The notes under the pieces are model-generated. The model was given only the letters and a program-made list of their open reading frames with translations. It did not search any database and was not told the DNA's origin. Positions 6,034-58,091 of a DNA stretch of 64,000 nucleotides are shown one piece after another (positions within the stretch are counted from its first letter, which is position 1; every line of letters begins with the position of its first letter). Position numbers and translations under genes: made by a program. The stretch spans positions 5,370 through 69,369 of the forward strand of contig JBDSHF010000028.1 in assembly GCA_039918595.1 (NCBI GenBank), written 5' to 3'. Origin of the DNA: Thermoanaerobaculia bacterium (GTDB taxonomy: Bacteria; Acidobacteriota; Thermoanaerobaculia; Multivoradales; UBA5704).

Positions 6034-6232
6034 CCCGGAAACGCCGCCCCCTTGTCAACCCATATGCCGCCTCTGAGGCGGCATATGGGAGACAGCCCTC
6101 CTTTTTTAGACCGCGCCATCGGTAGCGAAGAAGGGCGCCTAATCGCCGGATTACGTGCCACACTACCCGGCGAGATTATGGACCGGCATGCCGTGGCGGC
6201 TCGCCTGAGTTCCATGATCCTGCGAGGCGACT

Positions 6233-22800: not shown

Positions 22801-24789
22801 GGCTTCTCAACAACGGTTTGGTTCGCTTGGGGAACCGATACGACGCTCGGAAATTCTACGCCTAGCCAGAACGTCGGCAGTGGTAATTCTTCAGTGAGCT
22901 TCGCGGCTACACTCAATAACCTTCAGTGCGGCACTACCTACTACTACCGTGCCAAGGGGCAGAACAGCGGCGGGCAGACATCCGGTGCGCTCTACAACGT
23001 AACAACTTCCCCTTGCAGCCAAATACCCGTTATAACGATAACGGCAAGCGATCCGACTGCGACTGAAAATCCCATGACTACGGGGGAGTTTCTCATCCAG
23101 CGAACAGGAGATCTTTCTAGTGCGTTATCGGTGGCATACACCGTGGGAGGAACCGCCATCGTTGGGGTAGATCACACGCTTGGAGGCGGGAGCGTGACCA
23201 TCCCCTCTGGATCAGCCTCGACTACTTTGACCGTCTTTCCGATCGACGATTCACTGGTCGAACCAGATGAGACCGTCGTTGTGACGCTTCAGCCGCAGTC
23301 CCAATATACAGTTGGTACCCCAAGCGGTGCCACTGTTACAATTACGAGTGATGATACGGGATGTGCCTTAAGTGTCATAAGGCCGCAAGGTGGAGAGGTG
23401 TGGACAAAAGGATCACCTCATACCGTTCAGTGGAGTGCGAACTCTGATTGCGTGGACTTTGCCTTTATTCTATACAGAAATGGTAACTTTGATGGCTACC
23501 TGACAGGTTCTCTGTCCGGGAGCCAATTTAGCTGGACACCTCCGGCGTGGCTCGTACCAAGTCCCGGGCTGCAGATTGATGTTGTAGGATTCAACGCTGA
23601 TGGCACTGGTGTTTCGGCGCGTTCAAACAACTTTACGCTTATCAACCCTGCGGTCCTTCCCGCAGTCATATTCCAGGACACTGTAGAGACTAACGATGAG
23701 TTCAACTACTACTCCGAAGGATGGGGAGTGACAAATTTCACCTCGCACAGCCCCACGCATTCGCGCGCGGATAGTCCTGCTTTCTACGGCAACAACACGA
23801 ACAGCTCACTTATAACACCTAAAATCGATGTTAGTAGCCGCACCTCCCTCTCTCTCAGCTTCTGGCATCGCTTTAGTCTTGCGGACTTCGACTTCGTGAA
23901 CGTCTGGGTTAAGACCGATCAAGGAGATTGGATCTTCTTGCAGGGCTTTACCGGAATCCAATCTGACTGGCGACAGGTCACAATTAACCTGAACGCTTTC
24001 CTTGGCCAACCGTCTGTTCAGGTCGCTTTTCAGATAGTATCTGATGATGCTCTGACTGCCGATGGCTGGTATATCGACGACATCGTATTGAGTGGGGCGA
24101 GTGACACTAATAAAATTTTCTCTAATGGTTTTGAGTCCGGTGATCTTTCGGCATGGTTGGTGGCGCCGCCGAGCGACGGAAGCATCGTTTCTGTTTTGGA
24201 GCAGGGTGTCCCAGGGCAACCCGGAAAGGATATTTGGACAACGAGCAACTATTCATTTGCGCCGGGCGGCAACACGCCGGGAGGTGGGTTGGACAACGAA
24301 GAGCTTGTAGTAGGAGGATGGGGCGACAATTACTACAGCCTCCTTGAGTTCAATCTCGCAGGGCTTCCAAGTCACGCATCCTCGGCAGTGCTCAAGCTCT
24401 TTTGCTACCGGACTCGTGCTACCGAAACGATTGGCATGTATGTCGAGCGTATAACCCAGATATGGGATTGGCGTACCCAAGGCACCGGCCGAGATAGGGA
24501 GAGGTTATGGTGGGCAGACCAACCGCAGTCACTCAATTGGATAGGCTTGCCGGTCACGAAGCCGACGGTAGGGCAGTGGTACTCAATCGACATCACGGAT
24601 CTCTATAACGCATGGCAGAACGGATCTGTGCCAAACTACGGCATCAAGCTCACACCGGTTGATAATGGTAACGAGTGGAGCGAGTTTTACAGCGCAAACT
24701 ACTCTGATCCGGCCTTCCGGCCTCGGCTCGTAATTCGGCCGGATCAATCTACCGTTAAACGTTCTCCTCTATCTAGGAAGCCACGGTAG
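19876..24789 (+). CDS. Giant secreted multi-domain surface protein (signal peptide; at least four tandem FN3-like repeats; Calx-beta-like domain; lectin/MAM-like C-terminal region)
   Basis: TTG start overlapping the upstream stop. Signal peptide MKYSAWALSVIVLILSGEGQAAA. Repeats containing SxVxPNGxxTxxWFxWGT...CDTTYYYRA occur four times. A Calx-beta-like block appears at ITITASDPTATENP...VVVTLQP. GC content is markedly lower than the window average. Confidence 0.8.
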   Translation: MKYSAWALSVIVLILSGEGQAAAHDFGSIPYDDVVYAAQVYNQCRDTLPTDKLVAYMLAPTWRELTNGNTNLTPSPMTLGRGDNDLDLYPDGQSGATAPHRRAFWHPGIGLWQLDDIGLGKDISTEKFNSRDAAQVAATIISTRYCKSPTAAYIYGGIWIACGADGSLCQDIVNQLYNPNGPPAYTVGRDNSVGRYGGSQLHTCKLAGDTRYFDCLYVKPANPDGTRANAEGTISSWIYQPLEGLYPPNTPSPLTMPFYVYREDATGGGFEWRYWLAADTGFGKDYAARRTYGANSRAGLHWVSDASTSLALCDVTLTRGACGGIPQAPSISNIAQLSYDGSPLSVGAITQAGTVILRGTLAGSQGQQVRIELEVRRISDPFLGEPNYLGNYVTSGSVSKCVTGLQDAKYHWQARVRSDSGQFSQWLQFGGNSEASPDFEVQANRCAICTASGASAVVTKYGRIGISCGVPLAVELAASVNNGITLLNGVSLTASVSGSETGTINYTFYCNRPDGGIDVRSGWIAKYDGISANPKTAYDVCDYVGPGIYTAKVIAERGSSAAESRTLITVSAPSTQTPSVTTSGSANVTQSSATLSLSVNPNGSDTSAWFDWGTSTSFCCNTSQQTVAASSGASLLSMTVGALQCDTTYYFRAHAQSVGGEATGSTLSFRTGACGNGPQTVQLVPDPGFEQGNNAWWVASPAFYIDHAPTFPNPRNGSYYAFLSTSNGSAGNNLQGGVISPQVTIPSNASGAELRFWYSVSTQETSTSIFDTLKAYLVKPGNQATLFATISNLDNSGTTYREKVVGIPSSFFGGPVQIFFSGATDGSLPTVFRVDDVTLSAFIPATAGSPVVSTGSVDQITSSSGRLSMTVNPNGADTQVWFDIETNNPPNSETEHVAIGTGQQAEGVSISVFGLRCDTTYYYRADAVNSYGSQLGSVSSFRTSTCPVQAPSVSTTVADSITSTSARLVGSVNPNGFSTTVWFAWGTDTTLGNSTPSQNVGSGNSSVSFAATLNNLQCGTTYYYRAKGQNSGGQTSGALYNVTTSPCSQIPVITITASDPTATENPMTTGEFLIQRTGDLSSALSVAYTVGGTAIVGVDHTLGGGSVTIPSGSASTTLTVFPIDDSLVEPDETVVVTLQPQSQYTVGTPSGATVTITSDDTGCALSVIRPQGGEVWTKGSPHTVQWSANSDCVDFAFILYRNGNFDGYLTGSLSGSQFSWTPPAWLVPSPGLQIDVVGFNADGTGVSARSNNFTLINPAVLPAVIFQDTVETNDEFNYYSEGWGVTNFTSHSPTHSRADSPAFYGNNTNSSLITPKIDVSSRTSLSLSFWHRFSLADFDFVNVWVKTDQGDWIFLQGFTGIQSDWRQVTINLNAFLGQPSVQVAFQIVSDDALTADGWYIDDIVLSGASDTNKIFSNGFESGDLSAWLVAPPSDGSIVSVLEQGVPGQPGKDIWTTSNYSFAPGGNTPGGGLDNEELVVGGWGDNYYSLLEFNLAGLPSHASSAVLKLFCYRTRATETIGMYVERITQIWDWRTQGTGRDRERLWWADQPQSLNWIGLPVTKPTVGQWYSIDITDLYNAWQNGSVPNYGIKLTPVDNGNEWSEFYSANYSDPAFRPRLVIRPDQSTVKRSPLSRKPR

Positions 24790-25641: not shown

Positions 25642-28600
25642 ATGGCGAGCCGGGTTGAGGAGCGCACCCACCATTTCTTCCGGTGGGAACGGCGGGGCCG
25701 CGGACGGCGGAGCTTCCTGTCTCCCGTCTCGCTTGAGCCGCCCTTCACTCCCTTTTGGTTCGTGAAACATGCCGCGCCCGCCCTCGATGACGGCAGGCAT
25801 CACACCTTCTTGTCAGCCTTCCTCGAACGGTTCTCTGGTAAGCGGGAGGCGCCGCCACCTGAGCCCGAGATCGAAGAGCCGGAGGCGGAACCCGGAGACG
25901 AGGGGGAGCCTGTCGAGCTACGGGTCCTCCTGCCGCAGGAGCTTTCCGTCACGGCGGCGCTCTCCGAAGGCTTCCTCAAGAGCCTTGCGGCCGTCCATAC
26001 GCCGCTCTCGCTGGAACTGGTCGGCATAGGCGGAGAGGTGGCGGTTTCCCTCACCAGCCGCAGGACGGCGGTGCCGATCCTCTCCTCCCAACTGCGGGCC
26101 TTCTTCCCGGAGGTACGCCTGGAGGAGGAAGAAGATCTCCTCCTCACTGCCTGGGAGTCGGGAGTGGAGGGTGTCTTCGGCGCCGTCGAGCTTGGCCTGT
26201 CCCGCGAGTTCATGCTACCCCTCGGCCGTCCGCGAAACTTCACGCCCGATCCCTTGACCGCGATCGTGGGAGCGCTTGCGGAGACTGCGCCCGGCGAGGT
26301 TGTCATCGTCCAGGTGCTCTTTCAGGGAGTGCGGTCGCCGTGGGCGGAGAACATCGTGCGGTCGGTGACCACACCCTCCGGCGAGCCCTTCTTCGCTGAC
26401 GCTCCCGAGGTCACCAAGCTTGCCCGCGAGAAAGTATCCGCACCGCTCTTCGCCGTTGCCGTTCGCGTCGTGGCGCGGGGAGCAACCGAGGAGCGGCTGT
26501 GGACGCTTCTCTCGGGTAGCCTTGGCGCGCTCGTGGGCGCAACGAGAGGTGACAACGAACTTGTGCCGCTCGGGACGGATGACAGTACCGAGATCTTGGG
26601 AGACGTGCTCCTGCGCAGGACCCACCGGAGCGGCTTTCTCCTCTCGCTTCCCGAGCTGCTTCCCCTGGTTCACCTTCCGTCGCCCTCGATCCCCGGCATC
26701 GCCCGGGACACCGGCCGCACCAAGCTCCTCCCCGAGGAGGCACAGGAAGGCGGGCTCTTCCTCGGGTACAACGTCCATGCGGGAAGGGAGCGCGAGGCGC
26801 GGCTCTCGACGGACGCGCGCCTCCGCCACGTGCATGTCGTGGGGGCTTCGGGCACCGGCAAGTCAACGCTTCTGGTGTCCATGATCCTCCAGGACATTGC
26901 CGCCGGGCACGGCGTGGGCGTCATCGACCCGCACGGCGATCTCATCGACCACGTGCTCGGCGGGATTCCTGAAAACCGAGCGGCGGACGTAATCCTCTTT
27001 GACCCGGCCGACCCGGAGCATGTCGTCGGCTGGAACATACTCTCCGCGCACTCCGAAGCAGAGAAAGACATGCTCTCCTCGGACCTCGTTGCGGTCTTCC
27101 GCAGGCTTTCGACCTCCTGGGGCGACCAGATGACGGCGGTCCTTGCGGGCGCGATTCTCGCCTTCCTGGAGTCAGAGCGGGGCGGCACGCTCCTCGATCT
27201 GCGGCGGTTCCTCGTGGACCAGGGCTTCCGGCGGGAGTTTCTCGCCACCGTCCGCGACGAGTATGCCCGAGACTTCTGGACGAGAGAGTTTCCGGTGCTC
27301 AAGGGCTCGCCTCAGGCGTCGATCGTGACCCGGCTCGATACGCTTCTCCGGGGCAAGCTCGTGCGCGGGGTGGTGACGGCCAGAGACAAGCCCCTGGACT
27401 TCCGGGGAGTGGTGGACGACCGGCGGATCTTCCTGGCGAAGCTCTCGCAGGGTGCCATCGGCGAGGAGAACGCTGCGCTCCTGGGGTCGCTTCTCGTCTC
27501 GAAGATCCACCAAGTATGCCTTCTGCGGCAGGATCAGGCCGAGGGTTCGCGCCGGCCGTTCTTCCTCTACCTCGACGAGTTCCACAACCTCGCGACGCCC
27601 TCCATGGCGACGCTCTTCTCCGGGGCGCGCAAGTACCGCCTCGGGGTGACCGTCGCGCATCAGGATCTCTACCAGCTCCACGCCTCCGTTCCCGAAGTCG
27701 AACGGGCCGTCCTCGGGAACGCATACACCCGGATCTGCTTCCGCCTCGGCGACGAGGACGCCCGGACCTTATCTGCGGGCTTCTCCTTCTTCACGGCAGA
27801 CGACCTCGGGAACCTCGACACCGGAAGAGCGATCTGCCGGGTGGGCAGGAAGGAGCACGACTTCAACCTCTCCGTCGTGCCGATGGAGCATGGAGACCCT
27901 GAGGCGCATGAAGCGAGGCGCCGGGATGTCCGGGCGCGGTCGCTTGCGAGGTGGGGCGCGCCGCGCTCTGCGGAGCCGCCGGCGGCTCCCGCACCTCCCG
28001 AGAGGCCACGAGCGGAAGCACCGCCACGAGTCGAAGTGCCACTGGCGCAGCCGCAACCCAAACGAGAGACAGCCCCGCCGCCTTCGGCTCCGCCCCCTCT
28101 ACCCGCACAGGTGCAAGCTCCCGAGCCACCTCCGGTCGAACCGCGCCGCCCGGGCAAAGGCGGGCCGGAGCACACGTATCTCCAGGAACTCATCAAGCGG
28201 TGGGGAGAGGAGAAGGGCTTCCGGGCAGTGGTCGAGGAGCAGATTGCGGGCGGCAGGGAAAGCATAGACATCGCCCTCTACCGGGGCGACCTCAAGATCG
28301 CCTGCGAGGTCTCGGTCACGACGCCTCTTGAATATGAGGTCGGGAACGTGGAGAAGTGCCTTGCGGCCGGATTCGGGACGGTGGCGGTCGTGTCTCTCAA
28401 GAAGGCCCGACTCGCGAAGCTCGGAAAGCTCCTCGACGAAGCCATTCCTTCCGAGAGCCGGGCCAAGGTCCACCTATTCACGACGGAGGAGTTGCTCTCA
28501 TGGCTTGAGGGGCAGCCGGTCCACGAGGAGGTGAAAACTGTCAGGGGATGGAAGGTCAAGGTCAAGTACCGCGATCCGGGAGATGACCGCATGAAGCGCG

Positions 28601-28650
28601 TCGCCGAGATCCTGGCCCGGAGTACGAGCGGGCTAGAGAAGGATGGGTAG
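25642..28650 (+). CDS. Large TraD/HerA-like P-loop ATPase fused to a Pro-rich linker and a C-terminal nuclease-like (possible PD-(D/E)xK) domain
   Basis: Paralog of 17676-18890: HVHVVGASGTGKSTLLVSMI, DPHGD, FFLYLDEFHNLATP...VTVAHQDLYQL. Unique roughly 330-aa N-terminal region. Linker PAAPAPPERPRAEAPPRVEVP.... C-terminal block ESIDIALYRGDLKIACEVSV resembles a restriction-endonuclease-like core. Confidence 0.7.
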   Translation: MASRVEERTHHFFRWERRGRGRRSFLSPVSLEPPFTPFWFVKHAAPALDDGRHHTFLSAFLERFSGKREAPPPEPEIEEPEAEPGDEGEPVELRVLLPQELSVTAALSEGFLKSLAAVHTPLSLELVGIGGEVAVSLTSRRTAVPILSSQLRAFFPEVRLEEEEDLLLTAWESGVEGVFGAVELGLSREFMLPLGRPRNFTPDPLTAIVGALAETAPGEVVIVQVLFQGVRSPWAENIVRSVTTPSGEPFFADAPEVTKLAREKVSAPLFAVAVRVVARGATEERLWTLLSGSLGALVGATRGDNELVPLGTDDSTEILGDVLLRRTHRSGFLLSLPELLPLVHLPSPSIPGIARDTGRTKLLPEEAQEGGLFLGYNVHAGREREARLSTDARLRHVHVVGASGTGKSTLLVSMILQDIAAGHGVGVIDPHGDLIDHVLGGIPENRAADVILFDPADPEHVVGWNILSAHSEAEKDMLSSDLVAVFRRLSTSWGDQMTAVLAGAILAFLESERGGTLLDLRRFLVDQGFRREFLATVRDEYARDFWTREFPVLKGSPQASIVTRLDTLLRGKLVRGVVTARDKPLDFRGVVDDRRIFLAKLSQGAIGEENAALLGSLLVSKIHQVCLLRQDQAEGSRRPFFLYLDEFHNLATPSMATLFSGARKYRLGVTVAHQDLYQLHASVPEVERAVLGNAYTRICFRLGDEDARTLSAGFSFFTADDLGNLDTGRAICRVGRKEHDFNLSVVPMEHGDPEAHEARRRDVRARSLARWGAPRSAEPPAAPAPPERPRAEAPPRVEVPLAQPQPKRETAPPPSAPPPLPAQVQAPEPPPVEPRRPGKGGPEHTYLQELIKRWGEEKGFRAVVEEQIAGGRESIDIALYRGDLKIACEVSVTTPLEYEVGNVEKCLAAGFGTVAVVSLKKARLAKLGKLLDEAIPSESRAKVHLFTTEELLSWLEGQPVHEEVKTVRGWKVKVKYRDPGDDRMKRVAEILARSTSGLEKDG

Positions 28651-28662: not shown

Positions 28663-28700
28663 CGGCGCCGCATCCCGCCACAGGGGCACCTTGTGGCGTC
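28663..28700 (+). terminator. Putative intrinsic terminator after the ATPase gene
   Basis: Hairpin cgccacagg-ggcac-cttgtggcg followed by tctttcc. Confidence 0.4.
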
Positions 28701-28791
28701 TTTCCGGCTACCATCGGCGCGCGTACGGTGGGCGAAGAGTGTTCTTCACACCTTCAACCCTCCGCGAGAGCGGATCTCTTTGGAGACAAGG

Positions 28792-30375
28792 ATGATGCGT
28801 CCCCGAACCCCTAACAGCGAAGGCAAACGGGTGGGGCTCTGGATCAGAGTCTCGACCGAAGACCAAGCACGGGGCGAGAGTCCCGAGCACCACGAAGCGC
28901 GCGCCCGGATGTATGCCGAGAGCAAGGACTGGACCGTCATAACGGTCTACCACCTCGAAGGCGTGTCAGGGAAGTCGGTCATGCAGCACCCCGAGGCACA
29001 GCGGATGCTTGCCGATGTCAGGCAAGGGTCGATCTCCGGCCTCATCTTCTCCAAGCTCGGCCGCCTAGCCCGGAACACGACCGAGCTACTGGAGTTTGCC
29101 GCGATCTTCGAGCAGCACGGTGCCGACCTCATTTCCCTCGGCGAGTCGATCGACACCTCCACTCCCGCCGGCCGTCTCTTCTACACCTTGATCGCCGCCA
29201 TGGCGACCTGGGAGCGAGAGGAGATCGCCTCTCGGGTCGCGGCTTCCGTGCCTATCCGGGCCAAGCTCGGGAAGAAGCTCGGCGGAGCCGCCCCCTACGG
29301 CTACGCCTGGAAGGACGGCAAGCTCGCCCCTGAAGAGAAAGAGGCGCCTGTCCGGAAGCTCATGTATGAACTCTTCCGACAGACCAAGCGCGTGCGGACG
29401 GTTGCCCGGCTCTTGAACGAGCAAGGATACCGGACCCGAAACGGAAGCCTCTTCACCCATGTCACGGTGCGGCGCCTCATCCTCGACCCCACCGCTAAGG
29501 GGGTACGCCGCGCCAACTACACCAAGAGCCTGGGTGACGGGAAGAAGTGGAAGCTCAAGCCCGAAAGCGAATGGGTAGAGCTGCCAGTCCCCCCGATCGT
29601 GGACGAAGCGGTCTGGGAATCGTGCGCCTCGATCCTCCGGGAGAGGGCGAACGGCCGCAAGCCCGGTCCCCGGACAGTCCACCTCTTCACTGGCGTTGTC
29701 TTCTGCCATTGTGGGCGGAAGATGTACGTGCCCTCGAACAACCCTAAGTGGATCTGCCAGGGGTGCCACAACAAGATCCCCATTCCGGACCTTGAGGCCG
29801 TCTTCGAAGAACGGCTTCAGGCGCTCGTCTTCTCCCCTGAGCAGTTTGACGTCCACCTTCGGGAAACAGAGGCGACGATCGAGGCAAAGCGGGAGGAGCT
29901 GGCAGTGCTACTGCGGGAAGAAGACTCCGTAAAGGCTGAGTCCGACAAGCTCTACCGCCTCTACCTCGAAGGGGGCCTCCCGGTCCCGGCCTTTCGGGAA
30001 AGGAACGATCCTCTGGAGGAGCGGAAAGAGCAACTGCGGCTCCAGATTCCCCGGCTCAAGGGAGAGATAGACTTCCTCGTGATACGGCAGCTCGGAAGTA
30101 CAGAGACTCTTGTCGAGGCCCAGACCCTCTACGAGAAGTGGGCGATCCTCTCCTTCGGGATCAAGCGGGAGATCGTCGAAACCATCGTGGAGCGGATCGA
30201 CGTCGGGGTGGGCGATGTCGAGATCACCCTCTCTTGCGACATACCCGAGCCCCCCGACTTCCCCCTTTCCCCTGAACTCATGGCAGAAGGGGAACGAATC
30301 TCCAGGGATTCATCGCGGCGAGCAGGGAAAACCGGGCCGGGAAGACCAGCCGGGCGCGGGCCCGCACGACGCTGA
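28792..30375 (+). CDS. Large serine recombinase (second copy); 3' end fused across the insertion junction into comM-derived sequence
   Basis: [11 protein letters not shown] catalytic motif. Resolvase and recombinase domains. C-x2-C...C zinc ribbon ([10 protein letters not shown]...CQGCHNK). Start chosen at MMRPRT. The last roughly 23 codons overlap the truncated comM on the opposite strand. Confidence 0.9.
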
Positions 30376-36895: not shown

Positions 36896-37447
36896 GTGGC
36901 TATGGCAACTCTTGACCATCCTGAACTGCGGGAATCGCTCAACATTCTGCTGAAGAGCTCCAGGCCACGCCTGGAGCGCGTTCTCAGGAACTTCGAGATT
37001 CCACCCGAAGACGCCGAGGACATTCTGCAGGATGCGCAACTGACTCTGCTCTACAAGTGGGACAAGATCCGCAGTCCCGAGAGCTGGTTGATCGGGACGG
37101 TCAAGAAGAAGTGCATCATGTACTGGCGCAAGCGCCGGGGGAGCCTCTGCGAGGCTGTGGATACGGCCATCCTCGACCTGCTCGCCGTCCCCCAGGCACC
37201 GGATCAGGAAAAGACCGAGCTGACGTACGACCTCAACCGGGTGATGTTGCGCCTGTCGACCCGCTGCCGCTCGCTGCTCAATTTGCGCTACGGTCTCGGC
37301 TACGGCCCGACCGAGGTCGCGGAGCAGATGGGCTACCGCACATCCAGCATCCGCAAGGTCACCAATCGCTGTCTCGCGGCTCTCACCCGGCAGCTCCTGG
37401 CGGTCGGGTTCGATCAGGAGCCGCAGGGGGAGCCCCACGATGAATAA
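36896..37447 (+). CDS. ECF-type RNA polymerase sigma factor (sigma-70 regions 2 and 4)
   Basis: Region 2: DAEDILQDAQLTLLYKWDKI. Region 4 HTH: RCRSLLNLRYGLGYGPTEVAEQMGYRTSSIRKVTNRCLAAL. Confidence 0.8.
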   Translation: MAMATLDHPELRESLNILLKSSRPRLERVLRNFEIPPEDAEDILQDAQLTLLYKWDKIRSPESWLIGTVKKKCIMYWRKRRGSLCEAVDTAILDLLAVPQAPDQEKTELTYDLNRVMLRLSTRCRSLLNLRYGLGYGPTEVAEQMGYRTSSIRKVTNRCLAALTRQLLAVGFDQEPQGEPHDE

Positions 37448-38834
37448 GCACCCGCATCCGACGCTGCTCGCGCGGTTCGGCCGCGGCCGGCTGCAGCGCC
37501 ACCGGAACCGTGAGGTCGTACGGCACCTCCTCACCGACTGCGACGACTGCCGTCGCGTCACCTCCCATCTCCTTCCCACGGCTGATGTGTCGGCTCGCCT
37601 GGAGGAGGAGAGCGCTCCTCTGTCCGTCGACATGCCGGGCGCCGCCCAAGGTGATATGCCGGCGATCGAGTACGGCTCGGCCTTCGAGCGTTCCTGGCGC
37701 GAGGTCAAGCGGCTGCAGATCACCCTGGCGGCCGAGCGTTCGGAGGCTTTCGAGCTGATGCGCGAGCTGCTGACCCAGCCGTTCGAGCGCCAGTGGGAGA
37801 GCGTGACCGACGCCTCGCGGCAACCCACCTGGGCTTTTTGCGATCTGCTTCTGGATACCGCCCGGGAATGGGGCTTCCAGGAGCCGGGCCGGGCGCTGGA
37901 GCTGTCGCGGCTCGGCGTCGAGGTGGCGCAACGCCTCGATGGAGCGGCCTATGGCGAGTCGCGCGTCCACGACCTCGTCGCGCGCGCCTGGGCGGGCCTG
38001 GGCAACGCGCAGCGCATCCGGTCGGACTTTCCCGCAGCGGAGAAGAGCTTCGCCCGCGCCGAGCGGCTGCTCAAGAACGGCACCGGCGACCCGGTGGAGA
38101 AGGCCCAGGTGCTCCTGCTCAAGGCCTCGTTGCGCGGCAATCAGCAGCGCTTCCGCGAAGCCTTTCTGCTACTCGATCGGGTGATGTCGCTCGGCGACCA
38201 GTGCGACGATTCGCACCTGTGCGGCAAGGCGCTGATCATGCGCGGCTTCTTCCTCGGGCTCGCCAACGACCCGGAGGCCGCCATCCGTCATCTGACGGAA
38301 GGGCTGGAGAAGGTCGATCCCGCGGCCGATCCGCGCTTGGTGATCGTGGCTCAGCACAACCTGACCCTGTACCTGGCCGAGGGGGGCCGGTACTGCGAGG
38401 CCGTGCGGCTGCTCGAGAGCGCACGGCCGCTCTATTATCAGATCGGCGACCAGATGAGTCTCCTGCGCCTGCGCTGGCTGGAGGGGAAGATCGCCAGCGC
38501 CCTGGGGCACTTCACGGAAGCGGAGGAGTTCCTGCGCGGCGTGCAGAAAGAGCTGATCGAGCGCGAGCTCGGCTACGACGCCGCCCTGCTCTCCCTGGAT
38601 CTGGCCACCATCTACGCCCGCCAGGGACGGAGCGCCGAGATGCGGCGCCTGGCCGAGGAGATGCTCCCCATCTTCAAGTCGCAGGATATCCATCGGGAGG
38701 CCATCGCCGCGCTGTTCGTCTTCCAGAAGGCGGCGGAGATGGAGCGCGTCACCCTGGGGCTGATCCGGGACGTGACCGGCTATCTCAAAGAATCCCGCGC
38801 CACCTGGAGCCTCCGCTCCAGGGAATCCCGCTGA
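37440..38834 (+). CDS. Putative anti-sigma factor: ZAS-like zinc-finger N-terminus plus TPR-like body
   Basis: Its ATG overlaps the sigma gene stop by 8 nt. HLLTDCDDCRR motif. Paralog of 3098, 40508 and 41907. Confidence 0.7.
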   Translation: MNKHPHPTLLARFGRGRLQRHRNREVVRHLLTDCDDCRRVTSHLLPTADVSARLEEESAPLSVDMPGAAQGDMPAIEYGSAFERSWREVKRLQITLAAERSEAFELMRELLTQPFERQWESVTDASRQPTWAFCDLLLDTAREWGFQEPGRALELSRLGVEVAQRLDGAAYGESRVHDLVARAWAGLGNAQRIRSDFPAAEKSFARAERLLKNGTGDPVEKAQVLLLKASLRGNQQRFREAFLLLDRVMSLGDQCDDSHLCGKALIMRGFFLGLANDPEAAIRHLTEGLEKVDPAADPRLVIVAQHNLTLYLAEGGRYCEAVRLLESARPLYYQIGDQMSLLRLRWLEGKIASALGHFTEAEEFLRGVQKELIERELGYDAALLSLDLATIYARQGRSAEMRRLAEEMLPIFKSQDIHREAIAALFVFQKAAEMERVTLGLIRDVTGYLKESRATWSLRSRESR

Positions 38835-38950: not shown

Positions 38951-39478
38951 ATGAATTCTTCGGTCCCACCCGATCTGGCGGAGCCTTCCTTCGAGGAGAT
39001 CCTCGCGCGGGCCGAGCCCAGGCTCAAGCGGGTCTTGAGCCGCTATCAAATTCCCGCCCAGGACGCCGACGACCTGCTGCAGGAGACCTTCCTGATCATG
39101 GTCTCCAAAGCGGGGAGCATCCGGAACTACGATGCCTGGCTCGTGGGGACCCTCGCTAATCGCTGCATCATCTACTGGCGGAAGCACCGTTCGAAGCTCT
39201 GGGACCTGGTCGACTCCGCCATTCTCGAGCTGCTGGCCGACGTCGAGGCTCCCCCCCAGGAGAACGCCGATCTGCGGTATGACCTCGACTCCCTGCTTTC
39301 CAACTTGCCGGACCGTTGCCGCTCCCTGCTCCGCCTTCGCTATGGATTCGGCTGCAGCACTGCCGAGACGGCGGAGCGGATGGGCTATTGCAAGTCGAGC
39401 ATCCGGAAGGTGACCCGCCGCTGCCTGGCGGCGTTGACCGAGCAGCTCCTCGGGGCCGGCTTCCAGCCCGATCCCTGA
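38951..39478 (+). CDS. ECF-type sigma factor (paralog)
   Basis: DADDLLQETFLIMVSK... and RCRSLLRLRYGFGCSTAETAERMGYCKSSIRKVTRRCLAAL. Confidence 0.8.
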   Translation: MNSSVPPDLAEPSFEEILARAEPRLKRVLSRYQIPAQDADDLLQETFLIMVSKAGSIRNYDAWLVGTLANRCIIYWRKHRSKLWDLVDSAILELLADVEAPPQENADLRYDLDSLLSNLPDRCRSLLRLRYGFGCSTAETAERMGYCKSSIRKVTRRCLAALTEQLLGAGFQPDP

Positions 39479-39644
39479 CCCCCGATCCCCTCAGCCGGTC
39501 CCTCCGGATGCCGTGCGGCATCCGGAGGGAACCCGTTCTTCTTCTCCTGTGTCCTCTGAGACGACCCTGCGGTAACTCTACTTCAGAGCGCACACATGCC
39601 TATGGCTATTCGGCCACACAGGCGATTAGGAAAAGGAGATCGTC

Positions 39645-39866
39645 ATGGTTCATCCGAAGCTTCGCCACGTCCTCGCCGCCTCGGCACTGGTAGCTGCCGT
39701 TTCGCTGGTCCCGGTCGCCAGCGCCAATGCCGCCGTCCACGAACGGGCGCACCGGATCTCCGCCGCCGCTTCCCGGGTCGAGGCCGGGGCTTCGTGGCTG
39801 CGGGATCTGGTGAACCATGTCCTGGTGAAGGTCGGAGTGAGGATCGACCCCGACGGAGATCACTGA
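39645..39866 (+). CDS. Small secreted protein (73 aa, signal peptide) embedded in the sigma/anti-sigma array
   Basis: RBS AAAAGGAG 6 nt before the ATG. N-terminal KLRHVLAASALVAAVSLVPVASANA with an AxA cleavage-like site. Confidence 0.5.
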   Translation: MVHPKLRHVLAASALVAAVSLVPVASANAAVHERAHRISAAASRVEAGASWLRDLVNHVLVKVGVRIDPDGDH

Positions 39867-39980: not shown

Positions 39981-40511
39981 ATGAGTGCACTGGACCACCC
40001 CCAAGTCGAGTCGTCGCTTGAGGGCTTTCTCGAGAAGGTCCGGCCCCGTCTGAAGTCGCTGTTCGCCCACTACCGGATCCCGCCACAGGACACGGAGGAC
40101 ATTTTGCAGCAGGCGCTGCTGGCCCTGATCTATCACCGCGAGGGGATCCGGGACTCGGAAGCGTGGCTGCTGGGAACCCTCCGCAACAAGTGTCTCCTGT
40201 ACTGGCGGGAGCGGCGGCGCAAGCTCTATGACGCCGTCGACGCCGCGGTTCTCGAGGCGATGGCCGAGCCGATCGAGCCCGCCCAGGAGGGGGCGGACCT
40301 CCATCGGGATCTGACCACCGCTCTCGAGCACCTGCCGGAGCGCTGCCGGTCGTTGCTCTGGCTGCGGTACCGCCAGGGGTACGATCCGCCGGAGGTTGCG
40401 GTGCGGCTGGGCTACAGCCCGGCGAGCATCAGCAAGGTCACCACGAGGTGCCTCGCCGCGCTGACGCGGCAGCTGGTCACCGCTGGGATCTACCGGAGGA
40501 AAGCGGAATGA
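39981..40511 (+). CDS. ECF-type sigma factor (paralog)
   Basis: DTEDILQQALLALIYHREGI... and RCRSLLWLRYRQGYDPPEVAVRLGYSPASISKVTTRCLAAL. Confidence 0.8.
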   Translation: MSALDHPQVESSLEGFLEKVRPRLKSLFAHYRIPPQDTEDILQQALLALIYHREGIRDSEAWLLGTLRNKCLLYWRERRRKLYDAVDAAVLEAMAEPIEPAQEGADLHRDLTTALEHLPERCRSLLWLRYRQGYDPPEVAVRLGYSPASISKVTTRCLAALTRQLVTAGIYRRKAE

Positions 40512-41887
40512 CCGGCCCTCATCCGACAGCCGGCGCGCTCGAGCAGTTCGTGCTCGGGCAGCTCGCCCCGGCGGAGATGCGCGAGGTCGCCCGTCACCTG
40601 CTCACCGGCTGCCTGTTCTGCCAGGAGATCACCGCCAACCTCTGGGAGCCCGCCGATATCTTCGAGGACCCGCAGACGCTCGCCACGGTTGAGCTCGGGG
40701 CCATGGACGCCCGGGACAGCTACGACGCGATCCTCGACCGGGTTTTCGAGAAGGTCGTCGCCACCGAGTCCCTGCTTGCGGAGCAGCGATCGCTGGGGCG
40801 CAAGCTCTACGAGGAGCTGCTGCAGTGTCCGGCGGAGCGCCGGCAGTTGCTGCTGGTCAACAGCCAGCGCTTCCGCAACCGGATGCTCTGCGAGCGGCTC
40901 GTCGAGAGCAGCTACGAGGCCTGCTTCGAGGAACCCCGCCGCGCGATCGAGATGGCCCAGCTGGCGGTTTCGTCCGCGGACCGTCTGACCGTGGAGGATT
41001 GCGGTGGGGAAGAGGCGCTCGCCGGGCTGCGAGCCCGGGCCTGGGCCCATCTCGGCAACGCTTTCCGGACCAACTTCGACCTCGCGAGCTCCGAGGGCGC
41101 GTTCGCGGTCGTCGAGACCCTGCTCGACGAGAGCCGCATCACCCTGTTCGAGAAGGCGAAGGTGCTCTCCTTTCTGGCCTCCTGGCGAAAGGCGCAGCAG
41201 CGGTTCGGCGAGGCCCTCCAGATCTTCGACCGCGTCGCCGCGATCTACAAGAAGCTTGGGCAGTGGAACCTCCTCGGCCGTACGCTCCTCCAGAAGGCGC
41301 TGGTCTGCGGCGAAGCGGGCGACGGCGAGGGGGAAATGACGCTGCTGCGGCGGGCCCTCGATCTGATCGATCCGCAGGCCGATCCCCGCGTCTTCCTGGC
41401 CGCCCGTCACAACCTGATCAACGCCCTCTATGAGAGCGGCCGGGTGCGCGAGGCGTTCGCCTTGCTGTACCACACGCGCCCTCTCTACCTGAAGGCTGGC
41501 GACCGCATGAACCTGCTGAAGCTCCGCTGGCTCGAGGGGCTGGTGGCTTTCGGCCTGCACCGTATCGAGCAGGCCGAGGCGGCGTTCCGCGAGGTCCGCG
41601 ATTCTTTTCTCGAGCTCGGCCTCGACTATGACGCCGCGCTGGCCTCCCTCGACCTTGCCGGCGTGTACATCGTGCAGGGGCGCTCCGCCGACGTGAGCCG
41701 CGTCGCCGAGGAGACCCTGGCGATCTTCCACTCCTATAACACCCACCGCGAGGCGATGGCGGCGCTCCTGGTCTTCTGCGGCACCGCCCGCTTGAATCAG
41801 GCGCGCATCGAGCTCGTCCGCGAGGTCTCCAGTTTTCTCAAACGGGTGCGCAACAACCCGGATCTCCGCTTCCCTCAGCCTTCCTGA
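40508..41887 (+). CDS. Putative anti-sigma factor, ZAS-like plus TPR-like (paralog)
   Basis: Its ATG overlaps the sigma TGA (ATGA). HLLTGCLFCQEI motif. Conserved blocks shared with 3098 and 37440. Confidence 0.7.
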   Translation: MTGPHPTAGALEQFVLGQLAPAEMREVARHLLTGCLFCQEITANLWEPADIFEDPQTLATVELGAMDARDSYDAILDRVFEKVVATESLLAEQRSLGRKLYEELLQCPAERRQLLLVNSQRFRNRMLCERLVESSYEACFEEPRRAIEMAQLAVSSADRLTVEDCGGEEALAGLRARAWAHLGNAFRTNFDLASSEGAFAVVETLLDESRITLFEKAKVLSFLASWRKAQQRFGEALQIFDRVAAIYKKLGQWNLLGRTLLQKALVCGEAGDGEGEMTLLRRALDLIDPQADPRVFLAARHNLINALYESGRVREAFALLYHTRPLYLKAGDRMNLLKLRWLEGLVAFGLHRIEQAEAAFREVRDSFLELGLDYDAALASLDLAGVYIVQGRSADVSRVAEETLAIFHSYNTHREAMAALLVFCGTARLNQARIELVREVSSFLKRVRNNPDLRFPQPS

Positions 41888-41906: not shown

Positions 41907-43247
41907 GTGTCGTTTTGTTGCGGCCGTTCTGCTAAAATGTTGTCAGTGCATAATTCTGACGAGCACTCACGATTTCTGCGGGGTGAGCTGAACACCGGAG
42001 AGAACCGCCGGGTCGTTCGCCATTTGCTGGCCCGGCGGGGGAGCCGGCAGCCGCCCTCGGGCGCATGCTCGGCGGCGGCCGATTACAGCCAGGCGTTCGG
42101 CGGCCTCGTCTCCCATCTGGCGGATCACACCCGGACGCTCGCGCGCGAGCGACAGCGTCTCCCCGGGTTGATTGAACTCCTGCGCGACCTGCCGCCCTCC
42201 GCTTGGCACGACCTTTTAGGCTCCGATCCGTCGTTCCACAACTGGCCGTTCGGCGAGTGGCTGATCGAGGAGAGCCGTAATCTCGCCGACTCCGATCCGG
42301 GCCGCGCCGGAGAGCTGGCGACCGACGCCCTGCTGATCATGGAGGCGCTGATCCCCGGAACCTATGGGACCGCTCTCATCGAAGACTTCAAGGCACGGGC
42401 GTGGGCGGCCAGGGGCGAGGCGCTACGGCGGCTCTCCGACTTGCGCGGGGCCGAGGATGCATTCGCCAGCGCCGAAGAGTGCCTCCTCGAGGGGACGGAA
42501 GATCCCCTGGAAGAGGCTCGGATTCTCGAGCTCAAGGCGGCGCTATATCGCGATCAGCGGCGGGTGGAGAAGGCGCATCTCCTGCTCGACGACGTCATCG
42601 CCATCTACCGGCAGTACCGCGATCCCCATCTCCTGGGCCGGGCTTTCATTCAGAAGGGGCGTGTCGAGGGAAAAGTGAACGCCCTGGAGCCGGCGATCCG
42701 GTGGCTGCGCAAGGGGCTCGGACTGATCGATCCGGCGCGCGAGCGGTCCCTCGACCTCTCGGCCCGGCACAGCCTCATGCTCTACCTGAACGAGAGCGGC
42801 CGCCCCCGGGAGGCCCGCTTCCTGCTCAAGGCTTCGGGACTCGATTTCCTGCGGCACGGCAACCCCCTGCTGAACCTCCGGCTCCGCTGGCTCGAAGGCA
42901 AGATCTACGACTCCCTCGGCTTCCTGGGAGAAGCGGAGAAGGCGCTGATCGACGCCCGCCAGGGGTTCGCCGACCTCGGGGTCGGCTTCAGCGCCGCCGC
43001 CGTCTCCCTGGACCTCGCCGGCCTCTACGCGGTCCATGGACGCGCCGCGGAGCTGAGGAGCCTTGCCGAAGAGATGCTGCCGATCTTCCAGTCGCGCGAC
43101 CTTCAGCAGGAGACGATCGCCGCCCTCCTGGCGTTCCAGCAGGCGGCGCGGATGGAGAGGATGATTGAGACGAAGATAAACGCCGAGATCCTGGCCTGTC
43201 TCGACCGCGCCCGCCAGGATCCGAAGCTTCGCCTCGAGCCCCTCTGA
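41907..43247 (+). CDS. TPR-like paralog with degenerate zinc motif (second tandem copy)
   Basis: HLLARRGSRQ replaces the Cys pair. The rest is homologous (LKAALYRDQRRVEKAHLLLDDV; QETIAALLAFQQAARMERM). Confidence 0.65.
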   Translation: MSFCCGRSAKMLSVHNSDEHSRFLRGELNTGENRRVVRHLLARRGSRQPPSGACSAAADYSQAFGGLVSHLADHTRTLARERQRLPGLIELLRDLPPSAWHDLLGSDPSFHNWPFGEWLIEESRNLADSDPGRAGELATDALLIMEALIPGTYGTALIEDFKARAWAARGEALRRLSDLRGAEDAFASAEECLLEGTEDPLEEARILELKAALYRDQRRVEKAHLLLDDVIAIYRQYRDPHLLGRAFIQKGRVEGKVNALEPAIRWLRKGLGLIDPARERSLDLSARHSLMLYLNESGRPREARFLLKASGLDFLRHGNPLLNLRLRWLEGKIYDSLGFLGEAEKALIDARQGFADLGVGFSAAAVSLDLAGLYAVHGRAAELRSLAEEMLPIFQSRDLQQETIAALLAFQQAARMERMIETKINAEILACLDRARQDPKLRLEPL

Positions 43248-43263: not shown

Positions 43264-45702
43264 TTACGTCCTCACACCCAGGAACAGATAGCCCGCGAGC
43301 AGCGAGAAGACCGCTCCAGGGCTCCAGACCGCCACGATCGGCGGCAGGGCGCCCGCCGCGCCGAGCTTGGTGAAGAAGGCGTAGATCGCCAGAAAGGCGA
43401 AGCCCAGGACCAGGGAGAGCCCGATGCCGTAGAGCGCCCCCTGCCGCCCGAGGCGGAAGGCGAAGGGGAGGGCGACCAGCGACATGATCAGCGAGGCCAC
43501 GGGCAGCGCGATTTTGTCCTCCAGCTCGACCTCCAACTCGGGGACCGACTGGCCGCTCTCCTTCAGCTCCTGAATGTACCCCTTGAGCTCGCCGTAGCGC
43601 ATCTGCTCCGGGGGGCGGATCTCGGAGTCGAAGTAGGCCGGCGTCTCGGGATAGCGGACGATCTTCGGCTCCTTGAACCGCGCGTAGCTGGTGACGTCCA
43701 CCCCTTTGAACGAGCGTGCCCAGCCGTTGTTGAACACCCAGGCGTCGCCGATGTAGTGGGCCTCCTCGGTGAAGAGGCGGCGCGTCAGCCGGTGCTGATC
43801 GTCGAAGTCGAACACCTGCAACCGCTGCAGACTCGCCCGCGCCGGGTCGTAGTGGGTGTAGTTGTAGATATACCGCCCTTGGCCGAAGAGCCACTGGCGA
43901 TCGGCGCGCCGGTAGGTGCGGGCGGTCTCCCGGCCGTGAATCTGGTCCTTGAGCTTCGCCACCTTCTCGTTCGAGGCCGGCAGGATCGCCGACTCCAGAT
44001 AGCCGCAGAAGAGGCTCACCAGCAGCGCCGAGAACACCGCCGGCAGAGCGATGCGGTAGAGGCTCAACCCCAGCGACTTGCAGGCGGTGATCTCGTTCGT
44101 CCGCGCCAGCAGGCTGAAGGTCAGCAGCGTCGAGACCAGGATCACGATCGGGGCGATCTCGTAGAACATTTGCAGCGACAGGTACTTGTAATAGCTCAGC
44201 AGCACCCCGGTAGCGACCTTGTTTTTCAGCAGCTCGTCGAAGTTCTCCGACAGGTCGAAGATGATGACGAGAGCGAGCCCGGAGAGGACGACCAGCACGA
44301 AGACCCAGCCGAACAGCCGCGCAACATAGCGGTCGAGGAGGTTCGGGAAGACGATTCGCAGGCGGGGGAGGAGGAACACCAGCCGCGGGATGCGGGCCTC
44401 GGTCTGCTTCTTCGGGCGCTCGGCCCTGCGGCGCTGCCGCTCCGCCCTGAGCTCCCGCCGCCGTTCCCGGCGGATCCCCTTGAGGGCCTGGATCCCCCCC
44501 CAGACGTCCTCCCGGATCCAGCGGTCGATGCGGGTCAGCAGCAGGCTCTTGTCCCGGTTGCGCCGGATCAGGAGGAAGACTCCGAGGGTTGCCAGCAGGA
44601 TGTTCGGCGACCACATCGCCAGCCAGGCCGGGATCTTGCCGAAGCGCGCCGCTTCCTCGCCGTTGTTGAGCAGAACGTAGTAGACGATCAGGATGGCGAT
44701 CGACAGCGCGAAGCCGGAAGCCTTGCCGCCGCGGCGGTTGTTGATCCCCAGCGGCAGGGCGAAGAGCCCGAAGACCATGCAGGCGACCGGGATCGCGAAC
44801 TTCTTGTGGATCTCGACCCGGGCGAGGTTGCGCTGCTCGGAGTCGGTCGCGGAGTCGCGCTCGAGGTCGCGGAGCTCCCGGAGGTTAAGCTCGCGAATCC
44901 CCTTGGACGCCGAGATCTTGGCCTTCTGCCCGGTGGTGAACTGGTCGTCGAGGACGAGGTCGAGCCGCCGGTGGCGGCTGATCTCATAGCGGTCGGGGGA
45001 GTAGAGGTCCACCTTCTGCTGGATGGCGTTGTACAGCCGCAGGACCACCCGTTCGCCGGCCTGGTCGACCAGGATCTCCCCCCAGTCCGCGGTGGTGATC
45101 TGATTCCGCTCGCTCGACGGGATCGACTCGGCGAGGAAGACCCCCTTCCATCGTTTGCCGCCGGGGGGGACCTCGAAGACATAGACGACCTTGCCCTCCC
45201 ATTCCTCGTAGAACACCCGCGGCTCGACCTGCTGCGACACCGTCTGGGTGGTGATCTCGAGCCGCAGTTCCTGGAGGGAATGGTTGCCCCAGGGGAGCAC
45301 GTAGATCATCAGCAGCGCGTTGAGGACGGTCAGCACCCCGGAGAGCAGCAGGATGGGCCGGTAGAGGGTCAGCAGGCTCACCCCCGAGGCCCGCATGGCG
45401 ATCAGCTCGCTGTCGGACGACAGCCGGCCGACCGCGATCAGGGTGCCGAACAGGAGCGACATCGGGAGGGTGAGGACGACGATGTTTGGCAGGGTCAGCA
45501 GCAGGAGCCGGCCGACGATCGACACCGGCAGTCCGCGGCGGATGATCATCTCGGCGGACGCGAAGAGAAAGCGCAGGAGCAGGATGAAGGTATAGACCAG
45601 GAACCCCAGCCCGAGGGGGCCGAGGATCTCCGTCATCAGGTAGCGATCGAGCTTCCGCACGGGCGTCACTATACCTTGGGAAAGATATAGTGGGACAGCC
45701 AT
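43264..45702 (-). CDS. lptFG: LPS export ABC permease, fused LptF-LptG (YjgP/YjgQ family) in one 812-aa ORF
   Basis: Two tandem YjgP/YjgQ-like halves, each with an N-terminal TM bundle, a periplasmic beta-jellyroll region and C-terminal TMs (e.g. LMTEILGPLGLGFLVYTFILL...). Confidence 0.7.
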   Translation of the reverse strand: MAVPLYLSQGIVTPVRKLDRYLMTEILGPLGLGFLVYTFILLLRFLFASAEMIIRRGLPVSIVGRLLLLTLPNIVVLTLPMSLLFGTLIAVGRLSSDSELIAMRASGVSLLTLYRPILLLSGVLTVLNALLMIYVLPWGNHSLQELRLEITTQTVSQQVEPRVFYEEWEGKVVYVFEVPPGGKRWKGVFLAESIPSSERNQITTADWGEILVDQAGERVVLRLYNAIQQKVDLYSPDRYEISRHRRLDLVLDDQFTTGQKAKISASKGIRELNLRELRDLERDSATDSEQRNLARVEIHKKFAIPVACMVFGLFALPLGINNRRGGKASGFALSIAILIVYYVLLNNGEEAARFGKIPAWLAMWSPNILLATLGVFLLIRRNRDKSLLLTRIDRWIREDVWGGIQALKGIRRERRRELRAERQRRRAERPKKQTEARIPRLVFLLPRLRIVFPNLLDRYVARLFGWVFVLVVLSGLALVIIFDLSENFDELLKNKVATGVLLSYYKYLSLQMFYEIAPIVILVSTLLTFSLLARTNEITACKSLGLSLYRIALPAVFSALLVSLFCGYLESAILPASNEKVAKLKDQIHGRETARTYRRADRQWLFGQGRYIYNYTHYDPARASLQRLQVFDFDDQHRLTRRLFTEEAHYIGDAWVFNNGWARSFKGVDVTSYARFKEPKIVRYPETPAYFDSEIRPPEQMRYGELKGYIQELKESGQSVPELEVELEDKIALPVASLIMSLVALPFAFRLGRQGALYGIGLSLVLGFAFLAIYAFFTKLGAAGALPPIVAVWSPGAVFSLLAGYLFLGVRT

Positions 45703-57335: not shown

Positions 57336-58091
57336 CTACAGAGTGAAGTCTTCTCCAAGATAGATTTTTCGGACTTGCGCGTCCGTCGAAAGCTCATGCG
57401 GGGTGCCGGAGCGCAGAATTTCGCCGTTGTTGATGATATAGGCCCGGTCGGTTATTTTCAATGTTTCCCGCACGTTATGGTCGGTGATCAGAATTCCGAT
57501 CCCCATCGACTTCAGGTGCCTGATGATGCCCTGGATGTCGAGCACCGCGATCGGGTCGATCCCAGCGAACGGTTCGTCGAGAAGGATATACCACGGGTTG
57601 ATGACCAGCGCCCGCGCGATCTCGACCCGCCGCCGCTCGCCGCCCGACAGCAGGGCCCCGCGGGTGCGCCGCACCTTGGACAGTCCGAGGTCGGCGATGA
57701 GCTGGTCGATGCGCCGTTCCTGCTCCGCGTGCGAGAGGTCGACCGTCTCGAAGATCGCCCGCAGATTGTTCTCCACCGACATGCGGCGGAAGACCGACGG
57801 CTCCTGCGGCAGATAGCTGATCCCGCGCTGCGCCCGCAGGTACATCGGCAGCTCGGTGATGTCCTCGTCGCCGAGCAGGACGGTCCCCGAATCGGGCGGC
57901 GTCAGCCCGACCACCATGTAGAAGGTCGTCGTCTTGCCGGCGCCGTTGGGGCCCAGCAGCCCCACGATCTCCCCCGGGCCGACCTCGATCGACACGTCCT
58001 GCACCACGGCCCGGCCGCGGTACACCTTGCGCAGGTTGGCCGTCGCGAGCTTCCGCGCCTCCCCGGTCCTTTCGCTCAACGGCTCGGTCAT
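57336..58091 (-). CDS. lptB: LPS export ABC transporter ATP-binding protein
   Basis: Walker [15 protein letters not shown] signature [15 protein letters not shown]. Confidence 0.9.

Follow-up and report, generated by a model that had tools for sequence, protein, structure and literature searches.

Two small genes on a putative mobile element and a third in a chromosomal sigma factor array, here termed p, were found to belong to one family in the stretch of 64,000 nt from the Thermoanaerobaculia contig JBDSHF010000028.1 that was analyzed in this study (the window). The family was confirmed to be real, conserved and previously undescribed, and its products are predicted from their sequences to be small exported pro-peptides. 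The gene in question (39645–39866, forward strand) lies among genes for extracytoplasmic function (ECF) sigma factors and for proteins termed T, in which a zinc-binding anti-sigma (ZAS) domain is fused to a sensor made of tetratricopeptide repeats (TPR). By analogy with the RRNPP quorum-sensing systems, p and T may form a peptide-to-anti-sigma signaling cassette most similar to Rap-Phr, a reading to which we give about an even chance.

The p gene of the array encodes 73 amino acids (aa; MVHPKLRHVLAASALVAAVSLVPVASANAAVHERAHRISAAASRVEAGASWLRDLVNHVLVKVGVRIDPDGDH) and is located between the ECF sigma genes sigma2 (38951–39478) and sigma3 (39981–40511), 114 nt upstream of the latter. A Shine-Dalgarno sequence AAGGAG (39633–39638, forward strand) is found 6 nt in front of its ATG. 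The N-terminus, MVHPKLRHVLAASALVAAVSLVPVASANA directly followed by AV, comprises two basic residues, a hydrophobic core and the sites ASA and ANA, which obey the −3/−1 rule. Signal peptides were judged throughout by such a heuristic of hydropathy, charge and AxA sites, and the initial annotation, which had reported a 73-aa open reading frame (ORF) with a good ribosome binding site (RBS) and a signal peptide between the two sigma genes, was correct in this respect. The predicted signal peptide covers residues 1–27 or 1–29 and is followed by a variable spacer, a tryptophan-containing helix (approximately residues 38–62) and the C-terminal sequence GVRIDPDG plus DH. The AlphaFold model of p consists of the signal-peptide helix, a second helix of residues 38–62 and an unstructured C-terminal tail that bears the core, without any globular fold. 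The GC content of the three codon positions (0.78/0.47/0.77) resembles that of the adjacent genes. The core motif IDPDG (39843–39857, forward strand), which is common to both element copies, is the putative epitope of the mature peptide; among 37 orthologues D68 and P69 are invariant, and I67, D70 and G71 are nearly so.

The two other p genes are located on the forward strand, upstream of the two T genes of the element, with gaps of 124 nt (copy 1) and 59 nt (copy 2). Copy 1 (2692–2973) encodes 93 aa with two GNTLDPNG sequences, the final glycine of which is the terminal residue, and copy 2 (6233–6502) encodes 89 aa with KCSGGIDPNG and a subsequent cysteine-containing tail. The codon-position GC contrast of both is weak. 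Short ORFs in these positions, and the duplicated GNTLDPNG, had already been pointed out and were found again here, but it had not been remarked that the three small proteins are homologous. Each of them consists of a signal peptide, a tryptophan-containing helix and at least one C-terminal core, which reads VRIDPDG in the array, NTLDPNG (twice) in copy 1 and GGIDPNG in copy 2. The core shared by the family is K-x-G-x-x-[ILM]-D-P-[ND]-G, and that of the three ORFs in the window K-x-G-x-x-[IL]-D-P-[ND]-G.

A word-indexed search yielded 36 full-length homologues of p with identities of 64–92%. When these were aligned, hardly any variation was seen in the signal peptide, in a W-L motif or in AGVRIDPDG, whereas the spacer is variable. 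Among close orthologues the non-synonymous codon differences exceed the synonymous ones and are clustered in the spacer, as would be expected for a pro-peptide. When 1.84 billion representative sequences were searched with a profile, 79 clusters were detected at E < 1e-3, nearly all of them 64–143 aa long and matched from end to end. Three long proteins among these matches (P0159, P0222 and P0228) turned out to be repeat artefacts on inspection and are not regarded as relatives. At their extreme C-terminus the members have between one and five tandem units, each of approximately 10–13 aa, such as KAGVRIDPDG, KSGARIDPNG and KLGVRIDDNG, and in one subfamily the core is placed between cysteines (e.g., GCRIDPNGRC), which implies an oxidized, extracytoplasmic form of p. 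A signal peptide was recognized in 65 of the 68 members from genome loci, and an RBS of the AAGGAG type with the same spacing precedes nearly all members of the family. The pattern [ILVM]DP[ND]G matched 62 times in the six-frame translations of 915 kb, where roughly 10 matches were estimated by chance, and 52 of the 62 are located at the C-terminus of a short ORF that shares its strand with the TPR gene, mostly upstream of it. Paralogous cassettes within one genome differ in the residues that flank the core; the metagenome-assembled genome (MAG) SMAG_U12005 has five different cores. No family of Pfam or NCBIfam was matched by any of the three small ORFs of the window.

The position in front of the last glycine of the core alternates mainly between asparagine and aspartate (DPNG/DPDG). 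Asn-Gly is the dipeptide most prone to deamidation, to aspartate or isoaspartate, and the Asp-Pro bond is acid-labile. A built-in chemical timer or a cleavage within the core is therefore conceivable.

Upstream of the array p gene a conserved two-box element, TGTCC-N14-GCGGTAAC, was identified (39550–39576, forward strand). Its general form, TGTCY-N14-GCGGWAAC, occurs once in the window and 47 times in the 915 kb, in every case with the orientation of p. Of these, about 45 are located 91–117 nt 5′ of the ATG of p, and two precede a sigma gene. The TGTC and GCGG.AAC boxes are invariant and their spacing is fixed in the 35 sequences that were aligned. The motif, which was compared between the window and 43 related loci, resembles neither the usual ECF pattern (GGAAC...CGT) nor the sigma-70 or sigma-54 consensus, and a scan for sigma-70 promoters gave no match. 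It is probably a dedicated, promoter-like DNA element of an alternative-sigma type for p, or for p, sigma3 and T2 together. A terminator scan detected the metK terminator and matches at chance level only, and none between p and sigma3.

A second conserved leader element, CCTATGGCTATTCGGCCA (39599–39616, forward strand), is regarded as non-coding because its reading frame differs from orthologue to orthologue. Related GCCGTGGCGGCT elements were found 5′ of p in p-T modules. The element lies 25–45 nt upstream of the ATG of p both in the array and in the element copies, there at approximately 2650–2670 and 6195–6215. RNAalifold found no consensus RNA structure for the conserved leader of p, and Rfam gave no match across 36–44 kb of the window, so that a riboswitch or an attenuator in the leader was rejected.

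The array has the order metK, sigma1, T1, sigma2, p, sigma3, T2, T3 and lptFG, with all genes from sigma1 to T3 on the forward strand. The gene of sigma1 (36896–37447) overlaps with that of T1 (37440–38834) by 8 nt, and the ATG of T2 (40508–41887) overlaps with the stop codon of sigma3 by 4 nt (ATGA), whereas sigma2 is not directly followed by a T gene of its own. T3 (41907–43247) is, by sequence comparison, a T paralogue that lacks the CxxC and has no sigma of its own. Overlaps of sigma and T genes recur across loci, T being translationally coupled to its ECF sigma. All three sigma factors match Sigma70_r2 and Sigma70_r4, with the region 4 matches of sigma1 below the Pfam cut-off, and TIGR02937, which assigns at the level of the ECF superfamily only, with 58–67 bits (58 bits for sigma1) at a cut-off of 42.9. 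The mean distances between species are 0.06 for sigma1, 0.15 for sigma2, 0.22 for sigma3, 0.30–0.34 for T1 and T2, and 0.65 for the core region of p.

The T proteins of the window have lengths of 342–464 aa. The zinc-binding motif H-x3-C-x2-C is present in T1 (HLLTDCDDC), in T2 and in the T protein of element copy 1 (3098–4426, forward strand; HLLAVCPEC), which also has the TPR part and no adjacent sigma gene. The motif is lost in T3, and the T protein of element copy 2 (6562–7590, forward strand; 342 aa) consists of the TPR part only, lacking the entire N-terminal output domain; both may be receptor-only or decoy forms. An N-terminal profile of the T family matches the anti-sigma factor RslA across H-x3-C-x2-C with an E-value of 5e-5 (3hug_B, the SigL-RslA structure) and, more weakly, DdvA (0.08) and ChrR (0.5). 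The profile was needed for this, as the single T2 N-terminus found no match in the PDB with phmmer; Pfam zf-HC2 did not match the T proteins of the window at E < 0.1 either. The earlier suggestion of a TPR protein fused to an anti-sigma-like zinc finger is thereby strengthened. The evidence supports T as a ZAS domain fused to a soluble TPR sensor, with the domain match and the gene arrangement pointing to sigma binding.

TPR_12 scores above the Pfam cut-off in T1, T2 and the T protein of element copy 2 and below it in T3 and that of element copy 1, which passes TPR_8 and TPR_10. In the AlphaFold model of T2 (pLDDT 85), the N-terminus forms three short helices, which are followed by a disordered linker (residues 46–69), a long helix and a TPR superhelix. 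The superhelix is of a generic type and resembles TPR domains that bind peptides, RapJ-PhrC, RapH and RapF among them. In 156 T proteins no segment of 19 aa exceeds a Kyte-Doolittle value of 1.76, the median of the maxima per protein being 1.23, and T is thus predicted to be a soluble cytoplasmic protein without transmembrane segments.

A genome scan with the three T proteins of the array as queries, in which the loci were annotated with hidden Markov models, resulted in 73 loci, all from MAGs of Thermoanaerobaculia/Acidobacteriota. In 60 of them p is located upstream of a sigma or T gene on the same strand. With S standing for sigma, the layouts are S-T-S-p-S-T(-T), S-T-p-S-T, p-S-T and p-T without a nearby sigma, the last being found in eight genome loci as well as in both element copies. 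The arrays lie between metK and lptFG. Starting conversely from divergent p clusters, a T-family gene was found beside p on six of seven contigs, while the seventh (1.2 kb) was too short. The conservation of the small ORF next to TPR homologues, which had been named as a check of the initial proposal, is therefore given from the side of T (60/73 loci) as well as from that of p (6/6 informative contigs). No maturase, exporter or Opp transporter is conserved among the neighbors examined near p-T cassettes. The neighbors of p-T modules are mutually unrelated and include an M28 peptidase, a dioxygenase, MBL, an amidohydrolase, MacB, a transposase and a rhodanese, among others. The lack of a conserved enzyme or transporter indicates that the cassette is self-contained.

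Relatives of T with a different output domain were identified in soil metagenomes. At one locus (L078, 2446–7091) a p gene with five cysteine-flanked cores is convergent with the gene of a 511-aa protein, whose TPR part belongs to the T family (E 3e-91) and whose N-terminus is a helix-turn-helix (HTH) domain of the XRE type (HTH_3, 32.5 bits, above the Pfam cut-off). When metagenomes were scanned with the 511-aa protein and two relatives as queries, 37 loci were obtained. There, p is present in 25 of the 37, and in 18 of the 21 with adequate downstream flank; the usual layout is a T(HTH) gene, a p gene convergent with it and a further T(HTH) gene in the first orientation. The XRE-HTH plus TPR relatives have lengths of approximately 490–545 aa, and the HTH domain scored above the Pfam cut-off in 9 of 10 sampled proteins. 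At these loci (L078 and L084–L120) p carries two to five cysteine-flanked cores of the form GC.[IL]DP.G.C, and the second receptor is in some cases short, at about 260 aa, and comprises an HTH domain and a partial T region. As p adjoins T with either output domain and in either orientation, it tracks the TPR sensor and not the output. We consider this persistence across the output swap the strongest comparative argument that p and T would function jointly.

In the signaling model, p would be transcribed from its dedicated promoter and exported by the Sec pathway. After removal of the signal peptide, the pro-region would be cut into one or several short peptides with the core x-x-[ILM]-D-P-[ND]-G, which in the cysteine-flanked subfamily would probably be looped by disulfides outside the cytoplasm. 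The peptide would build up in the periplasm or outside the cell, be re-imported and bind to T in the cytoplasm, on the concave side of its TPR superhelix. The N-terminal ZAS domain of T would hold an ECF sigma factor, namely sigma3 and perhaps the orphan sigma2 in the array, and a sigma encoded elsewhere in case of the element copies. Peptide binding would alter this sequestration and thus switch the ECF regulon, and the loop would be self-reinforcing if the sigma in question reads the promoter of p-sigma3-T2. Export, processing, re-import, TPR binding and the direction in which sigma is affected are the steps that we infer. Of the RRNPP-like input to the sigma/anti-sigma pairs that the initial annotation had envisaged, the layout, the linkage, the ZAS domain, the soluble T protein and its coupling to sigma are borne out, but homology of the TPR part to Rap, NprR or PlcR is not demonstrable.

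Several findings weigh against such a system. In a Foldseek search with the TPR part of T, LGN/Pins was best and Rap proteins appeared from the 19th rank on (4gyo, E 3.7e-5; 3q15; 3ulq; 8rsv; these being RapJ-PhrC, RapH-Spo0F, RapF-ComA and phi3T Rap). In a search with a TPR sequence profile, RapF reached an E-value of 0.005 versus 3e-7 for generic TPR proteins, and kinesin light chain scored better than RapF as well. The likeness to Rap is thus generic, and homology to an RRNPP receptor is not established. The host is a diderm, so that the signal would have to cross the outer membrane or stay within it, and return; an Opp-type importer is neither encoded in the window nor conserved near the cassettes. 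Moreover, the D-P-[ND]-G core is nearly identical where the T proteins share only 35% identity. Such invariance is unlike the divergent RRNPP pheromones and hints at a shared role, such as in processing or as a turn.

Three species (L007, 5269–5352; L010, 5272–5355; L011, 5263–5355) have a p of just 27–30 aa, in which the start codon is fused to the tryptophan-containing helix and the core. Signal peptide and spacer are missing, while the ORF and the core are conserved among the three, which implies an alternative export route or an intracellular role. Furthermore, a clade of seven species has lost p and its promoter motif but kept sigma3-T2. T3 is found in most of the p-bearing arrays and in none of these seven (L017, L019, L020, L022, L023, L026 and L045), where the gap between sigma2 and sigma3 is 9–85 nt if measurable. 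At least one p-less MAG, SMAG_U5499, contains a separate p-T module (L070) besides its array (L020). Finally, a single p stands beside two or three T proteins in the arrays, and mirror-tree correlations of r(p,T1) = 0.53, r(p,T2) = 0.41 and r(p,sigma3) = 0.54 give T2 no preference.

Other explanations have to be weighed against a peptide signal. The small ORFs could be chance ORFs in GC-rich intergenic DNA, as spurious ORFs are common in high-GC genomes and the codon-position GC contrast of the element copies is weak, but length, start codon, RBS, signal peptide and core are conserved over 79 clusters and more than 90 loci, by which this explanation is refuted and keeps practically no probability. 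It is unlikely, yet to be taken seriously, that p is an output, i.e., a small secreted or periplasmic effector or envelope protein encoded by the first gene of an ECF-controlled operon, with T sensing another cytoplasmic cue or partner. The regulons of ECF sigma factors often contain adjacent small exported proteins, the promoter-like motif precedes p and, in two loci, a sigma gene, no terminator intervenes between p and sigma3, and sigma3-T2 persists where p is lost. However, p keeps company with T where no sigma gene is adjacent, in the eight genome loci and both element copies, and accompanies T proteins of the HTH type in convergent or divergent orientation; the tandem short repeats at the C-terminus and the lack of a fold also suit a processed peptide better than an effector.

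T could also bind the core of p before export, or without any export, so that sigma would report the flux or backlog of p and not the cell density, comparable to circuits of a TPR chaperone and co-activator such as IpgC-MxiE and to the export of FlgM. The clade with p proteins of 27–30 aa, which have retained the helix and the core and lack a signal peptide, would suit such a mechanism, as would the strictly cytoplasmic T and the lack of a conserved importer nearby. The cysteine pairs around the core in a large subfamily fit only an oxidized extracytoplasmic form, though, the Sec signal peptide is kept in 65 of 68 members and several tandem cores suggest released peptides, which makes sensing of this kind quite improbable. 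Repeated cores and cysteine-flanked loops likewise resemble multi-core precursors of natural products, and p might be read as the precursor of a ribosomally synthesized and post-translationally modified peptide (RiPP) or bacteriocin, with T as a pathway regulator or an immunity-linked factor. This is very improbable, since the neighbors of p in the arrays and p-T modules are heterogeneous and include no conserved maturase, protease or ABC exporter, and p starts with a Sec signal peptide instead of a leader for RiPP enzymes.

The region 1–30400 of the window has a lower GC content (0.51–0.62) than the remainder and is, according to its gene content, a putative integrative, conjugative-like element bearing both p-T modules. 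It encodes two large serine recombinases (12710–14326, reverse strand; 28693–30375, forward strand), two coupling ATPases similar to TraG/TrwB (17676–18890 and 25642–28650), an ArdC-like protein with an ArdC-N domain (10977–11804, reverse strand), a GNAT protein (4440–5069, reverse strand), a DUF2188 protein (1170–1400, reverse strand) and four XRE HTH regulators. Two separate XRE HTH genes (5656–6033 and 7595–7984, both reverse strand) flank the T gene of element copy 2. The part with the lowest GC content (0.51) encodes a protein of 1637 aa (19876–24789, forward strand) with MAM, Calx-beta, CBM96 and PhoD-N/purple-acid-phosphatase-N-like domains, which looks like a large surface or adhesion protein carried as cargo. 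To the right of the array the core genome follows with lptFG, ptsI, rapZ, hprK, rpoN, recJ and accA, and the Lpt genes indicate a diderm envelope. LptF and LptG are apparently fused to one protein of 812 aa (43264–45702, reverse strand), where two genes are called in L001, and a 712-aa protein (58088–60226, reverse strand) joins LptC and LptA/LptD-N domains.

If the signaling model holds, genetically encoded peptide signaling would extend to a soil phylum that is abundant, has an outer membrane and is almost uncultured. A secreted peptide would join the known ECF inputs, which are envelope stress, redox state, proteolysis, phosphorylation and fused domains (PMC7826278). The exchange of anti-sigma and HTH output domains on one sensor would be a natural experiment. 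The sequences of the candidate ligands follow from the genes, which makes the hypothesis directly testable, and orthogonal triplets of peptide, anti-sigma and sigma would be useful parts for synthetic biology. More tentatively, and with somewhat less than an even chance, Acidobacteriota (Thermoanaerobaculia and their soil kin) may possess a large, unrecognized family of genetically encoded, multi-copy peptide pheromones with a D-P-N-G core, sometimes disulfide-looped, that is sensed by one cytoplasmic TPR family, the output of which has been exchanged between a repressor of the XRE type and a zinc anti-sigma domain. On this reading, it would be the first RRNPP-type cell-cell signaling outside of Firmicutes and the first peptide signal that acts directly on the sequestration of an ECF sigma factor, and the cassettes of the conjugative-like element would let it read or manipulate the sigma factors of its host.

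No description of the p-T cassette was found in Pfam, NCBIfam, the accessible part of the ECF reclassification paper or the searchable literature. The literature search on the motif strings and on RRNPP systems with anti-sigma factors, in Acidobacteria or in Gram-negative bacteria found nothing relevant. The operational definition used by RRNPP_detector comprises a TPR receptor and an adjacent small secreted pro-peptide, and descriptions of RRNPP systems are confined to Firmicutes and mobile elements thereof (PMC10075063). The receptor length of about 250–500 aa, the intracellular receptor and a pro-peptide gene of 10–100 aa (here 73, 93 and 89 aa) are all found in the p-T cassettes; p and T are immediate neighbors in the element copies, and sigma3 lies between them in the array. 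The output of an RRNPP receptor is an HTH domain or of the Rap type, whereas the T proteins of the window have a ZAS domain or none and the metagenome relatives an XRE HTH. By analogy, the ZAS output would be functionally Rap-like and is not a known RRNPP output. As the host range of Firmicutes/Bacillota is exceeded by these MAGs of diderm Acidobacteriota and homology of the sensor is unproven, the cassette agrees with the operational definition but is not classed as a member.

The XRE-HTH plus TPR relatives with an adjacent p are similar to the HTH-TPR receptors PlcR-PapR, NprR-NprX, PrgX, Rgg-SHP and AimR-AimP, and the last one also shares the carriage on mobile elements with the element copies of the window. 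The arrangement of these relatives is the canonical one of RRNPP systems and agrees with the definition of RRNPP_detector (PMC10075063). Different from these receptors, the T proteins of the window bear an anti-sigma domain or no output, and the pro-peptides of the relatives carry two to five cysteine-flanked cores. In streptococci, the peptide pheromone ComS and the cytoplasmic TPR receptor ComR lead to the activation of the alternative sigma X. As a transcription factor, however, ComR induces the gene of the sigma, whereas T would sequester the sigma protein directly.

On the side of the sigma factors, regions 2 and 4, an anti-sigma gene immediately downstream and overlapping, and H-x3-C-x2-C correspond to an ECF/ZAS pair. 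T shares this motif and the gene arrangement with RsrA, RslA, ChrR and DdvA, but the ZAS proteins known so far are small or anchored in the membrane and respond to redox state, singlet oxygen or signals from the envelope. To our knowledge, no ZAS protein with a TPR sensor of about 350 residues and a linked pro-peptide has been described. The accessible part of the ECF reclassification paper lists no group that combines ZAS-TPR and a pro-peptide, and describes for ECF42 that a C-terminal TPR extension on the sigma factor regulates it (PMC7826278). There, the TPR is fused to the sigma without an anti-sigma, whereas here it is part of the anti-sigma and linked to the gene of a secreted peptide.

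The closest parallel is Rap-Phr of Bacillus. Sequence-level homology is not shown, p precedes T, the host is a diderm acidobacterium, and the partner would be an ECF sigma factor bound by an N-terminal zinc-binding anti-sigma domain instead of Spo0F or ComA. In both systems, on the predictions made here, the gene of a small Sec-exported pro-peptide lies beside that of a cytoplasmic TPR receptor, the active part of the pro-peptide is C-terminal and sometimes multicopy, and the receptor, which has no DNA-binding domain, would hold or release its partner via an N-terminal helical domain. Finally, both are found as many paralogous cassettes per genome, some of them on mobile elements.

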